Source of the DNA: Escherichia coli
GTDB taxonomy: Bacteria > Pseudomonadota > Gammaproteobacteria > Enterobacterales > Enterobacteriaceae
DNA: 64,000 bases
NCBI RefSeq assembly: GCF_002854065.1
Contig: NZ_CP024147.1
Direction: 5' to 3' (one strand)
In this document: positions 5,762 through 24,158 of the stretch, piece by piece
How the letters are laid out: each line of letters begins with the position of its first letter
Position numbering within the stretch: position 1 is the stretch's first letter
Translations under genes and position numbers: made by a program
Notes under the pieces: generated by a model
Told to the model about the DNA's origin: nothing
What the model saw: the letters and a program-made list of their open reading frames with translations, nothing else
The model's database searches: none

Positions 5762-7063
5762 ATACGTCCCGAGGTAAATATTAAAGTTCTCCATATCCAT
5801 CACATTAGCGAACTGATAAGACGCATGAATGGTGTGAATGGTGTACGTCCCTTCATCATCAATCCAGCAGTCGTTATCACAAACTACACCGCTGAATTCA
5901 TCAATCTTATTGTGCGCGTAGATATAACCGAGCTCGAAACGTTTCCACAGCGCGTTAATCCCGGCAGTGAAATCTTTCTCATTATTAGCATCTAAATAGG
6001 CGGTATTAAGATTAACCACAATGCCATTGTCCGGATCCGTTTTCAGGCCGTTCCAGGTCATGCTCATACCATAGCCGGTACGATCGGACTGATCGACAAA
6101 ATTACCCTTGCTATCGGTATAACCATAAGCATTATTTACCACGTTCGCTTCCATCGCTGCGGAAACGGTGAATTCTTCCGTCGGCGACCAGGCAATTACT
6201 GGGCGCAGATAAGCAACATTTTTCTGCTGCTCCATATCGCGTCCATGATAATTACCGTCATTATATAAAGATGTTCCGTCTTCAAGTAACGTATTTAATT
6301 CAAAATACCAGTTATCGAGTTGTTTGCTGACGAGGAAATTACCGCCAGCGTTAGAGCGCCCGCGGCCCTCTTTCATCATATAGATATAACCGCTGCCATC
6401 GTCATAAAGATCGTTCGCAGTATTACCGGAATGTTCAACAAAGGTATCCTGATTCAGCGGGAACATATCGTAGGCTTCAAAACGGCCTACTTTGACCTTC
6501 CAGTCGTTTTCTTTGCCAAAGAAGAATACCGCATCATCGATATTTACTGAACCGTGCATATCACCCAGCGGTTGTGCGGAGAACCCGGCGAAATAACCGT
6601 TGTCCATCTTTCGCATACCGTCAAAACCTAACAGAATACGACCATTGAGATTCCACTGTTCATTAGTGGGATCGCTATTCACATCAGCGTTGGTCATTGC
6701 CAGCAGGCCATGATTACTTTCCGCATCCATATTAAATTCTACGTCGCCGTAGATTTTTAAATCGCCATAACCTGAAAGCAAAAGATTAGGTGAGGTGGCA
6801 TTTTTCTTTGCAGATTCCGTCGTTGCCTGTCCATTTACCGGCGTATTGCCCTGAGCGGCCTTAATTTCGCGGATCTCAGCGGCTTGTTGTGTCTGCAGCT
6901 GTTTAACCTGGCTCTCTGCTTTTGCTGCCCGCATTTCTGCCGCTTCCAGGCGTTCTTCCAGCAATGCCATGCGTTGTTCCAGCGTTAAATGCTGTGTTTT
7001 TGCCATACCGGTACTACATGCCAATAATAAACCGATGGCTAAAGATAATGTCGATTTTTTCAT
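5762..7063 (-). pseudogene. 5' part (434 codons) of a sugar-porin-like outer membrane protein gene, interrupted by IS1; the annotated ORF's last 8 codons (GDAANLLI*) come from the IS1 end
   Basis: Signal peptide MKKSTLSLAIGLLLACSTGMA, N-terminal coiled-coil (LEQRMALLEERLEAAEMRAAKAESQVKQLQ), then Gly/Tyr/Asn/Asp-rich sequence typical of beta-barrel glycoporins; ORF runs into the IS1 inverted repeat. Confidence 0.75.
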
Positions 7064-9797: not shown

Positions 9798-10196
9798 TAG
9801 GCCGGATAAGGCGCTCGTGCCGCATCCGGCAATCAATGCCTGATGCGACGCTGTCGCGTCTTATCAGGCCTACAACTATTGCCGACCTGTAGGCCGGATA
9901 AGGCACTTGTGCCGCATCCGGCAATCAATGCCTGATGCGACGCTGTTGCGTCTTATCAGGCCTACAACTGTTGCCGACCTGTAGGCCGGATAAGGCACTT
10001 GTGCCGCATCCGGCAATCAATGCCTGATGCGACGCTGTCGCGTCTTATCAGGCCTACAACTATTGCCGACCTGTAGGCCGGATAAGGCACTTGTGCCGCA
10101 TCCGGCAATCAATGCCTGATGCGATGTCGCGTCTTATCAGGCCTACAACTGTTGCCGACCTGTAGGCCGGATAAGGCACTTGTGCCGCATCCGGCA
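9798..10196. repeat. BIME/REP array: about four tandem ~100-bp units, each with two REP palindromes
   Basis: Unit gtaggccggataaggcRctYgtgccgcatccggcaatcaatgcctgatgcgacgctgtYgcgtcttatcaggcctacaactRttgccgacct repeats head-to-tail with point differences. Confidence 0.85.
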
Positions 10197-18983: not shown

Positions 18984-19070
18984 TGTAGGCCTGATAAGAC
19001 GCTATCAGCGTCGCATCAGGCATCCTGCTCAAATGCCGGATGCGGCGTAAACGCCTTATCCTGCCTACAA
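18984..19070. repeat. REP/BIME element between yiiM and cpxA
   Basis: gtaggcctgataagacgc...gcgtcgcatcaggc and gccggatgcggcgtaaacgccttatcc palindromes. Confidence 0.6.
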
Positions 19071-19079
19071 ATGCGGAGT

Positions 19080-20453
19080 TTAACTCCGCTTATACAGCGG
19101 CAACCAAATCACCAGCCGTAAACCGCCCAGCGGGCTGTCTTCTGCCTTCACCCAGCCACGATGCTGCTGAATGGCGGTTTCAACAATCGCCAGCCCCAAA
19201 CCTGTACCGCCAGATTCACGATCGCGTGCTTCATCGGTCCGATAGAACGGACGGAAAATCTGTTCGCGATCTTCCGGGCTAACGCCAGGACCATCGTCGT
19301 CCACCGTAATGGTGATACCGTCTTTATCTACCGCAAAGCCCACTTCAATCTTCGTATGGGAATAACGCAGAGCATTACGAACAATGTTTTCCAGCGCACT
19401 TTCCAGGGCGTTCGGATTGCCGTACAGCGGCCACGGCCCAGGCGGGAAGTTAACTGTCAACGACTTGCCCATTTGCTCGGCTTCGAACGCCGCGTTATCC
19501 AGCACTTCGCCCCACAACTGGTTGGCTTTGATGGTCTCGCTTACCAGCGCGTTTTTTTGCTGATTACGTGACATCACCAACAGGTCGTTAATCATGCTGT
19601 CTAGACGTTGCGCTTCGGTTTCAATACGCTCCAGTTCTTTGCTTTCACCGCTACGACGGCGCAGTAACGCCGTACCCAGTTGCAGACGCGTCAGTGGCGT
19701 GCGCAGCTCGTGAGAGATATCAGAAAGCAGACGCTGCTGGGAGGTCATCATACGCTCCAGCGCGGTGACCATCTGGTTAAAACTGGCACCTGCGGCAAGG
19801 AATTCCTGTGGCCCCGCTTCCAGTTCCGGGTGCTGGCGTAAGTTTCCCTGGGCAACTTCATCGGCAGCGTTTTTCAGCTTACGCGCCGGTTTTGCCAGAC
19901 TCCAGGCCAACCACAACAGCAGCGGCGTACTGACCAACATGGTGACAATCAGCAGTAATAGCGGGCGGTCAAACAGTAAGTTAATGAAATCGGATTGAGA
20001 ACTGCTGGCCGGACGAATCAGATAAAGTTGGTAATTATCTTCGCCATCACGCACGGAGAACGGACCGACCAGTTCCACGCGGCCATACTTTTTCTTCTGC
20101 GGATGATCGGCGTTATCGGCCTGACCAATAAAGTTACGAATGATCTGCATTTCGCTGCGTTCAGCGCCGATCACGCGGCCTTCGGTGGTCACTAATAACA
20201 AACGCTGTCCTGGCGGTGCCCACTTATCAATCGCCCGGAACAGACGCCGCCACCACATTAAATCGTTGGGCGGATCGTTCGCCAGCTCCGCTTCAACATG
20301 CTGCTCAATCATCAGACCCTGACGCTGTTCGCTATCCAGAAGCTCGGTCATCTGGCGTGAATCGAGCTTGGGTAACATCAAAACCAACATCAACACCAGC
20401 GCCAGCGTCAGCCAGAAGATGGCGAAGATGCGCGCGGTTAAGCTGCCTATCAT
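19080..20453 (-). CDS. cpxA: Envelope-stress sensor histidine kinase CpxA
   Basis: 457-aa ORF. Confidence 0.95.
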   Translation of the reverse strand: MIGSLTARIFAIFWLTLALVLMLVLMLPKLDSRQMTELLDSEQRQGLMIEQHVEAELANDPPNDLMWWRRLFRAIDKWAPPGQRLLLVTTEGRVIGAERSEMQIIRNFIGQADNADHPQKKKYGRVELVGPFSVRDGEDNYQLYLIRPASSSQSDFINLLFDRPLLLLIVTMLVSTPLLLWLAWSLAKPARKLKNAADEVAQGNLRQHPELEAGPQEFLAAGASFNQMVTALERMMTSQQRLLSDISHELRTPLTRLQLGTALLRRRSGESKELERIETEAQRLDSMINDLLVMSRNQQKNALVSETIKANQLWGEVLDNAAFEAEQMGKSLTVNFPPGPWPLYGNPNALESALENIVRNALRYSHTKIEVGFAVDKDGITITVDDDGPGVSPEDREQIFRPFYRTDEARDRESGGTGLGLAIVETAIQQHRGWVKAEDSPLGGLRLVIWLPLYKRS

Positions 20454-21148
20454 GAAGCAGAAACCATCAGGTAGCCGCGACCACGCAAAGTTTTAAACCA
20501 CGGGTGACCATCTTTACGATCCGGCAGTTTACGACGCAGGTTGGAAATGTGCATATCGATAGCGCGGTCGAAAGGCGTCAGGCGTTTGCCCAGCACTTCC
20601 TGGCTTAAATGTTCACGGGAAACCACCTGACCCAGATGCTGTGCCAGCAAATAGAGCAGGGTAAACTCAGTACCGGTTAACTCCAGCGTTTGCCCGTCGA
20701 AGCTGGCTTCCTGACGGCCTGGATTCAGCACTAAGGCATCAACTTCCAGTGTCGGTGAACCGTTGTCGTTGTTTTGCTGTTGCTCGCTCCAGTGCGAACG
20801 GCGCAGGATCGCGCGAATACGTGCCACCAGCTCACGATCATTAAACGGTTTCGGGAGATAGTCATCTGCGCCCAGCTCAAGGCCGAGAACGCGATCAAGT
20901 TCACTGCCGCGCGCCGTCAACATAATGACAGGCGTCTGGTGTGTCTGGCGAAGTGCTTTTAATGTGTCGATACCATTTTTCTTCGGCATCATTACGTCAA
21001 GCAAAAGTAAATCAATGCTGTCGTCCAGAAGATCAAGCGCCTGTTCCCCATCGTGGGCAACAATCACGTTGAAGCCTTCCATCTCGAGCAGCTCCTTTAA
21101 TAGGGAAGTCAGCTCTCGGTCATCATCAACTAACAGGATTTTATTCAT
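20450..21148 (-). CDS. cpxR: Response regulator CpxR
   Basis: 232-aa ORF; 4-bp overlap with cpxA. Confidence 0.95.
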   Translation of the reverse strand: MNKILLVDDDRELTSLLKELLEMEGFNVIVAHDGEQALDLLDDSIDLLLLDVMMPKKNGIDTLKALRQTHQTPVIMLTARGSELDRVLGLELGADDYLPKPFNDRELVARIRAILRRSHWSEQQQNNDNGSPTLEVDALVLNPGRQEASFDGQTLELTGTEFTLLYLLAQHLGQVVSREHLSQEVLGKRLTPFDRAIDMHISNLRRKLPDRKDGHPWFKTLRGRGYLMVSAS

Positions 21149-21202
21149 TGTTTAAATACCTCCGAGGCAGAAATTACGTCATCAGACGTCGCTAATCCAT
21201 GA

Positions 21203-21219
21203 CTTTACGTTGTTTTACA
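21203..21219 (-). promoter_or_regulatory. CpxR box GTAAA-N5-GTAAA in the cpxRA/cpxP divergent region
   Basis: Minus-strand reading gtaaaacaacgtaaag matches the CpxR consensus tandem repeat. Confidence 0.55.
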
Positions 21220-21297
21220 CCCCCTGACGCATGTTTGCAGCCTGAATCGTAAACTCTCTATCGTTGAATCGCGACAGAAAGATTTTGGGAGCAAATG

Positions 21298-21798
21298 ATG
21301 CGCATAGTTACCGCTGCCGTCATGGCCTCAACGCTGGCAGTCAGTTCATTAAGCCACGCTGCTGAAGTCGGTTCAGGCGATAACTGGCATCCGGGTGAAG
21401 AACTTACGCAGCGCAGTACGCAGAGCCATATGTTCGACGGCATAAGTTTAACCGAACATCAGCGTCAGCAGATGCGAGATCTTATGCAACAGGCCCGGCA
21501 CGAACAGCCTCCTGTTAATGTTAGCGAACTGGAGACAATGCATCGCCTTGTCACCGCAGAAAATTTTGATGAAAACGCTGTGCGCGCACAGGCAGAAAAA
21601 ATGGCGAATGAGCAAATTGCTCGTCAGGTTGAGATGGCAAAAGTCCGCAACCAAATGTATCGCCTGTTAACGCCGGAGCAGCAAGCGGTTTTAAACGAGA
21701 AACATCAACAACGAATGGAGCAGTTGCGTGACGTGACGCAATGGCAAAAAAGTTCATCGTTGAAGCTATTGAGTAGTAGCAACTCACGTTCCCAGTAG
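21298..21798 (+). CDS. cpxP: Periplasmic Cpx pathway inhibitor/chaperone CpxP
   Basis: 166 aa with signal peptide. Confidence 0.9.
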
Positions 21799-21804
21799 TA
21801 AACC

Positions 21805-21867
21805 CTGTTTTCCTTGCCATAGACACCATCCCTGTCTTCCCCCACATGATGTGGGGGTTTTTTTTAT
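21805..21867 (+). ncRNA. cpxQ: cpxP 3' UTR and terminator hairpin; probable CpxQ small RNA
   Basis: About 60 nt between cpxP stop and the cccccacat...gtggggg-T8 terminator; CpxQ is known to be processed from this UTR; exact 5' end not determinable here. Confidence 0.45.
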
Positions 21868-21946
21868 CCTCAATTTGCCTGCTGCTTAATGCATTGCAGA
21901 TGATTTGCTTCCGTTATACTAGCGTCAGTTGATAGCGGGAGTATTT

Positions 21947-22849
21947 ATGAATCAATCTTATGGACGGCTGGTCAGTCGGGCGGCGATTGCTGCGACGGCG
22001 ATGGCTTCGCTGCTATTGCTGATTAAAATTTTTGCATGGTGGTATACCGGGTCGGTGAGTATTCTCGCCGCGCTGGTGGATTCGCTGGTGGATATCGGCG
22101 CGTCGTTGACGAATTTACTGGTGGTGCGATATTCCCTGCAACCTGCCGACGATAATCACTCGTTTGGTCACGGTAAAGCTGAGTCCCTCGCGGCGCTGGC
22201 GCAAAGTATGTTTATCTCCGGTTCGGCACTATTCCTGTTTTTGACGGGTATTCAACATCTGATATCTCCAACACCGATGACAGATCCAGGCGTCGGGGTT
22301 ATCGTGACAATTGTGGCGCTAATTTGTACGATTATCCTTGTCTCGTTTCAGCGTTGGGTGGTGCGCCGGACGCAAAGCCAGGCGGTGCGGGCTGATATGC
22401 TACATTACCAGTCTGATGTTATGATGAACGGCGCAATTCTGCTCGCGCTGGGGTTGTCCTGGTACGGCTGGCATCGCGCCGATGCTCTGTTTGCATTGGG
22501 AATCGGCATCTATATTTTATATAGCGCGTTACGCATGGGATATGAGGCGGTACAGTCATTACTGGATCGCGCATTACCTGATGAGGAACGGCAAGAAATT
22601 ATTGATATCGTGACTTCCTGGCCGGGTGTTAGCGGCGCTCACGATCTTCGCACGCGGCAGTCAGGGCCGACCCGCTTTATTCAGATTCATTTGGAAATGG
22701 AAGACTCTCTGCCTTTGGTTCAGGCACATATGGTGGCGGATCAGGTAGAGCAGGCTATTTTACGGCGTTTTCCGGGATCGGATGTGATTATCCATCAGGA
22801 CCCCTGTTCCGTCGTACCCAGGGAGGGTAAACGGTCTATGCTTTCATAA
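21947..22849 (+). CDS. fieF: Cation-diffusion facilitator (Zn/Fe efflux) FieF
   Basis: 300 aa from [21 protein letters not shown]... Confidence 0.9.
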
Positions 22850-24044: not shown

Positions 24045-24158
24045 AAATGCCTGATTCGCTTCGCTTATCAGGCCTACGTGAATTCTGCAATTTATTGAAT
24101 TTACAAACTTTTGTAGGCCGGATAAGGCGTTCGCGCCGCATCCGGCATTGATAAAGCG
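24045..24158. repeat. REP/BIME pair between pfkA and sbp
   Basis: Two REP palindromes separated by attctgcaatttattgaatttacaa. Confidence 0.6.

Follow-up and report, generated by a model that had tools for sequence, protein, structure and literature searches.

The 64-kb stretch of E. coli chromosome analysed here (the window, to which all positions refer unless stated otherwise) appears, on the strength of its sequence, to contain the cpxP–cpxQ unit of the Cpx response of E. coli to envelope stress, a reading to which we give a probability of about 0.96. The CpxR box, cpxP and the small RNA CpxQ found here form a regulatory unit that is already known and indeed textbook. Two further observations, the overlap of cpxQ with a phage attachment site (attB) and a strand problem in an Rfam family, are small additions and not discoveries about the window.

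The gene order is yiiM-cpxA-cpxR / cpxP-fieF-pfkA, with cpxA (19080–20453) and cpxR (20450–21148, its ATG ending at 21148) on the minus strand, and with fieF and pfkA following cpxP at its 3′ side on the plus strand. The cpxP coding sequence, taken from the open reading frame list, RefSeq cpxP and MG1655 b4484, occupies 21295–21798 on the plus strand as an open reading frame; the K-12 start is at 21298, from which 166 amino acids are counted, an in-frame ATG is also present at 21295, and the stop codon ends at 21798. The divergent cpxR/cpxP intergenic region measures 149 bp. Over 21140–21900 the window shares 760 of 761 bases with K-12 MG1655, and the sole mismatch, at 21849 (A in the window, C in K-12), is the middle base of the cpxP terminator loop, within the phage attachment core described below. 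The same A is found in the attP of phage WPhi, in an episomal attP and in at least 99% of the 80 species that we compared. An 851-nt query (21100–21950) matched many complete E. coli chromosomes at 100% identity and was present in 5425 of 5426 E. coli genomes, where RefSeq labels the genes cpxR, cpxP and fieF. For essentially identical sequence, published work covers the binding of CpxR, cleavage by RNase E, the dependence on Hfq and the targets; as the sequence in the window is essentially that of the studied molecule, the published CpxQ mechanism should apply to it.

The 3′ UTR of cpxP spans 21799–21866. A sequence-only reading of this DNA had given it about 60 nt; it is in fact 68 nt long, and the annotated CpxQ inside it is 58 nt. 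That reading was right that the UTR ends in a strong terminator, which consists of an 8-bp stem with 6 GC pairs (21839–21857) and eight T (21858–21865), and right to name the UTR as the source of CpxQ. Indeed, alignment to MG1655 cpxQ (b4716, listed in the curated record as the ncRNA 'small regulatory RNA CpxQ', 58 nt, 4106330–4106387) places CpxQ at 21808–21865 on the plus strand, at the matching position, with 57 of 58 bases the same and the one difference in the terminator loop. The sequence in the window is UUUUCCUUGCCAUAGACACCAUCCCUGUCUUCCCCCACAUGAUGUGGGGGUUUUUUUU. It had been proposed that divergence of the UTR from CpxQ, or loss of the seed region, would count against the assignment; the alignment showed no divergence beyond that one base, and the seed UUUUCCUUGCC is intact. 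The RNA lies in the cpxP 3′ UTR, on the same strand, and ends at the cpxP terminator. The whole 68-nt UTR is found at 100% identity in 4189 of the 5426 E. coli records.

The predicted fold of CpxQ (−17.4 kcal/mol, z = −2.7) leaves 13 nt free at the 5′ end as a single-stranded seed (21808–21820), followed by a small 5-bp stem-loop (21821–21837), the terminator hairpin (21839–21857) and the U8 tail (21858–21865), all on the plus strand. In locus, strand, length (58 nt), 5′ end, seed, stem-loop and terminator it is the same as CpxQ of K-12 (b4716) and of Salmonella Typhimurium, and it differs from the K-12 RNA in the terminator-loop base at 21849. CpxQ of E. coli K-12 and Salmonella Typhimurium is said to have been described by Chao and Vogel and by Grabowicz et al., both in 2016. 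It is the 'poster child' among 3′ UTR-derived sRNAs. Like SdhX and SroC, CpxQ is a 3′ UTR-derived, RNase E-processed Hfq sRNA that is cut near the stop codon, uses the terminator of its parent mRNA and has a 5′ monophosphate (PMC9438474, PMC10250213). Unlike other 3′ UTR sRNAs, it comes from a monocistronic mRNA, and protein and sRNA act in one stress response.

At this locus, the cpxP mRNA would be translated into the periplasmic CpxP protein, and RNase E, guided by Hfq, would cut the mRNA 9 nt past the stop codon, releasing the 58-nt CpxQ with its 3′ end at the intrinsic terminator. From the annotated start of cpxQ we infer an RNase E site, CCCUG/U, at 21803–21808 on the plus strand, where a cut between 21807 and 21808 would give CpxQ its 5′ end. 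Biogenesis of CpxQ via RNase E and Hfq, and its targets, have been reported (PMC9438474, PMC4817254; RNase E dependence in PMC9438474), the natural 5′ end starts with U, and nhaB is regulated in E. coli (PMC10250213). The released RNA would carry a 5′ monophosphate and use its unstructured 5′ end, UUUUCCUUGCC, for pairing, with the terminator and U-tail as the Hfq-binding module, and would thereby pair with and repress mRNAs for envelope proteins (among them nhaB, skp, agp, fimA, ydjN and cfa). Published work assigns the seed region for nhaB and cfa to this 5′ end (PMC6755755). With RNAduplex, the seed was predicted to form an 11-bp duplex with nhaB at the translation start (−15.3 kcal/mol), an energy that 18 of 100 shuffled seeds reached equally well, and a second, weaker duplex near +306.

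We compared the locus across Enterobacteriaceae, using 80 cpxP loci gathered through the CpxP protein (71–100% identity). Mean column identity was 66% over the last 60 nt of the cpxP coding sequence (21739–21798), 98% over the whole of CpxQ (21808–21865), 100% over its first 31 nt (21808–21838) and 35% over the DNA after the terminator (21867–21908). According to a published observation, no other part of cpxP is as conserved as CpxQ (PMC9438474); the comparison here reproduces this, at 98% versus 66%. The seed UUUUCCUUGCC is invariant in 80 of 80 species, and 21803–21838 is at least 99% conserved among them, including the CCCUG ahead of the predicted cleavage point. The terminator stem showed compensatory changes, with both sides altered in 3 of its 8 pairs; at one pair, 16 of 29 distinct sequences have U-A or C-G in place of A-U. 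In the structure alignment 97% of cells pair, and the covariation score was reached by none of 500 shuffles. The small stem-loop is invariant, and its conservation is therefore uninformative about its structure.

These patterns bear on whether the UTR is conserved merely as the terminator of cpxP, by the demands of termination and with no trans-acting RNA being made. A canonical hairpin with U8 is present, as that explanation expects, and the covariation is confined to the terminator helix. Terminators, however, tolerate change as long as pairing holds, and compensatory changes are indeed what this stem shows. The 31 nt that precede it, by contrast, are predicted to be mostly single-stranded and are invariant in the 80 species while the adjoining coding sequence drifts to 66%. 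An invariant stretch beside drifting coding sequence fits a sequence-specific function. Published genetics, moreover, show regulation in trans by CpxQ, and the phenotypes of cpxQ deletion and complementation contradict a role in termination only. We thus regard the terminator-only explanation as very improbable and keep to CpxQ as a seed-bearing sRNA. In several genera, Kosakonia and Kluyvera among them, the CpxQ 5′ end has five T and not four (CCCTGTTTTTCC; cpxP 3′ UTRs of loci L014, L030, L033, L039, L060, L069, L076 and L078), where the processed end or the cleavage register may shift by one base.

Upstream of cpxP, an exact match to the CpxR box consensus, GTAAA-N5-GTAAA (GTAAAACAACGTAAA), lies on the minus strand at 21204–21218, upstream of both genes: 56 bp separate it from the cpxR ATG and 80 bp from that of cpxP. 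The sequence-only reading had located a consensus box in this orientation in the cpxRA–cpxP divergent region. The exact match inside the 149-bp intergenic DNA bears this out, but the interval given, 21203–21219, was one base too wide on each side. The consensus itself reportedly goes back to De Wulf et al. (2002). The tandem GTAAA pentamers, their 5-nt spacing and their position upstream of a promoter are shared with the CpxR boxes of degP, ppiA and Yersinia cpxR/cpxP, and the last of these also has the divergent, autoregulated cpxRA/cpxP layout seen in the window. Unlike many degenerate sites of the Cpx regulon, the box in the window is a perfect consensus, with weaker phased pentamers alongside.

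The exact motif occurs once in the 64 kb, where shuffles expect 0.09 occurrences. As 8 of 100 shuffles of the window gave at least one exact match, such a motif can arise by chance and might have no regulatory role. The match, however, sits in the promoter region of cpxP, the most strongly Cpx-induced gene. The 15-mer of the box, TTTACGTTGTTTTAC, is the same in 80 of 80 Enterobacteriaceae sequences (the 79 loci with sufficient upstream sequence, plus the window), within cpxR/cpxP intergenic DNA of which nearly all is at least 90% conserved in this set. The orthologous box of Yersinia pseudotuberculosis, which precedes cpxR by about 55 nt, was footprinted and found to be protected by CpxR~P, and its mutation lowered CpxR~P binding in gel-shift assays (PMC3158067). 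A chance match is, on this evidence, barely credible, and we treat the motif as a functional CpxR box.

A mismatch scan also revealed, on the minus strand at 21224–21238, a degenerate second box, GCAAACATGCGTCAG, which has 3 mismatches. It lies closer to cpxP than the consensus box, keeps a 10-bp phase with it and falls in a region at least 90% conserved. Together, the minus-strand pentamers in 10-bp phase are GCAAA (21234–21238), GTCAG (21224–21228), GTAAA (21214–21218) and GTAAA (21204–21208). At PcpxP three CpxR-P sites have been reported, one of which extends to +5 (PMC9753035), so that the sequence-only reading, which named one box, was correct about the consensus box but fell short of the sites in the literature. 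The phased pentamers agree with three sites; GCAAACATGCGTCAG is a candidate for one of the further sites, and a correspondence between individual elements and individual sites would be provisional.

A candidate −10 hexamer, TAAACT, is present at 21250–21255 on the plus strand, and a GTAAA half-site overlaps it (21249–21262, plus strand). This hexamer would put the cpxP transcription start near 21260, with the consensus box about 50 bp upstream of the start and its centre near −50. The start has been reported at no more than 44 bp from the ATG (PMC4817254). A sigma-70 consensus scan of 21000–22000 returned no promoter match, as is expected for an activator-dependent promoter. Phosphorylated CpxR would bind the direct repeat at 21204–21218, and probably also the weaker phased sites next to it, and would from there activate the cpxP promoter rightward and autoregulate cpxRA leftward. 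Just upstream of the cpxR start codon, at 21160–21185, the stretch GAAATTACGTCATCA is nearly invariant in the 80 species and presumably serves as leader or promoter of cpxR, or as an additional regulatory site.

A search of the whole window with Rfam 15 at the gathering threshold gave no match to a CpxQ family. The best sub-threshold match at the locus was RF02628 (Hrs1), at 21793–21865 on the minus strand, its 44.5 bits falling short of the gathering score, 56.4. Hrs1 of Erwinia amylovora was reportedly described by Zeng and Sundin in 2014. This Hfq-dependent RNA of 74 nt has an intrinsic terminator and is encoded between cpxP and fieF, on the strand that carries these two genes (PMC4070566); in its Hfq dependence, its cpxP–fieF interval, its strand and its terminator it is like CpxQ. 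The RF02628 consensus, however, begins with A7 followed by a GC hairpin, that is, as a reverse-complemented terminator, and its reverse complement contains CCCUGUUUaCCUUGCCA. Hrs1 is thus evidently the CpxQ orthologue, and the family appears to have been modelled on the wrong strand; the model fails to capture E. coli CpxQ and matches the opposite strand only. The lack of an Rfam match at the gathering threshold then reflects a library without a correctly oriented CpxQ model and not the sequence. Among the matches listed, 11 chromosomal, pipeline-annotated RefSeq E. coli records have no feature under the CpxQ match; one of these unannotated records is an MG1655-derived strain, although cpxQ is annotated in the curated record of K-12 MG1655. 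We suspect that CpxQ goes unannotated because Rfam has no correctly oriented model.

Matches to NsiR1, RyhB and OmrA-B in E-value mode were rejected as chance terminator-like noise. Elsewhere in the window, naRNA4 (RF02564, 'Nucleoid-associated noncoding RNA 4 (CssrE)') occurs as four tandem copies at 9800–10143 (plus strand) and as a further copy at 18988–19065 (minus strand) between yiiM and cpxA, all scoring 64–79 bits. A SECIS_3 selenocysteine insertion element matched strongly (84 bits) at 1631–1689 on the minus strand, presumably within fdoG, the formate dehydrogenase O gene. The ClpQY promoter element (RF02401), the L31-Gammaproteobacteria leader (RF03157) and two copies of ES036/CssrF (RF02751) also scored above gathering, with coordinates, taken collectively, of 39296–39353 (minus), 43965–44017 (plus), 24070–24111 (minus) and 44997–45038 (plus).

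The cpxQ gene is also a site of phage integration. By aligning the window, the attP of WPhi, an episomal attP and the attL and attR of a lysogen, we delimited a 47-nt core, GACACCATCCCTGTCTTCCCCCACATGATGTGGGGGTTTTTTTTATC, at 21822–21868 on the plus strand. It is the same in the window, in the WPhi attP, which is located between ogr and int, and in the attP of related P2-like phages of E. coli, Salmonella and Yersinia pestis, and covers about two-thirds of cpxQ; the copy in the window is unoccupied and is the only one there. The WPhi attachment site was reportedly dealt with by Liu and Haggard-Ljungquist in 1999. We take the offset between the MG1655 versions to be 1977 bp (4641652 minus 4639675). 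The WPhi/L-413C site placed by Nilsson et al. (2011) at 4104392 in the old MG1655 coordinates (PMC3448106) then falls at 4106369, inside cpxQ. It is near certain that 21822–21868 is the attB of WPhi-type P2-like phages and overlaps cpxQ. Nilsson et al. predates CpxQ, and P2-type sites are treated there as intergenic (PMC3448106); in the open-access literature, searched by titles, abstracts and term counts, we found no paper that states the link between CpxQ and phage attachment.

Occupied sites and phage-borne copies can be seen in other genomes. The 68-nt UTR matched E. coli genomes at 6099 places in 5426 records, with at most 4 per genome and 3 on plasmids; as a total only, this is 673 more places than records. 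One extra copy is on a 32-kb circular P2-like phage episome, adjoining the integrase. In a phage collection, 62 records matched, including WPhi, P2-like phages of Escherichia and Salmonella, and Yersinia pestis phages. In strain SRY206 the interval between cpxP and fieF holds a P2-like remnant of 11.6 kb with one exact copy of the core on each side, in the order cpxP, attL, int remnant ... ogrK, attR, fieF. The attL of this strain is a complete cpxQ and the attR a 5′-truncated copy ahead of fieF. Since attP has the same 47-nt copy, integration rebuilds an intact cpxQ.

The identity of 47 nt to the attP of WPhi-type phages, together with the surplus of 673 matching places, might suggest that 21822–21868 is conserved mainly as an attachment site and that the sRNA role is secondary. 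The host, however, gains nothing from keeping an attB. Phages choose sites that are already conserved, such as tRNA and tmRNA genes. The most conserved part of the UTR, 21803–21821, lies outside the att core, and the portion of the core at 21822–21866 (45 nt) is found in 8 of 80 species, as against 80 of 80 for the 5′ 35 nt of CpxQ. We give conservation driven by phage attachment next to no weight, and read the conserved UTR as the gene of an sRNA into which phages integrate.

The copy carried by the phage corresponds to nt 15–58 of CpxQ and includes the terminator with its U-tail as well as the small stem-loop and the conserved CCCUGUCUUCC stretch. It shares its strand with ogr, the late activator gene, and lies about 110 nt downstream of it. 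It is an unlikely but conceivable speculation that this seed-less copy is expressed as the 3′ end of ogr and gives an RNA that binds Hfq and either mimics CpxQ or competes with it. It would act in lytic growth, or in lysogens at attR, and would, if the idea is true, tie phage development to the envelope stress circuit. As cpxQ is a prophage insertion site and extra copies of the core occur, comparisons of CpxQ expression between strains should include a look for a prophage, or a remnant of one, at attL/attR.
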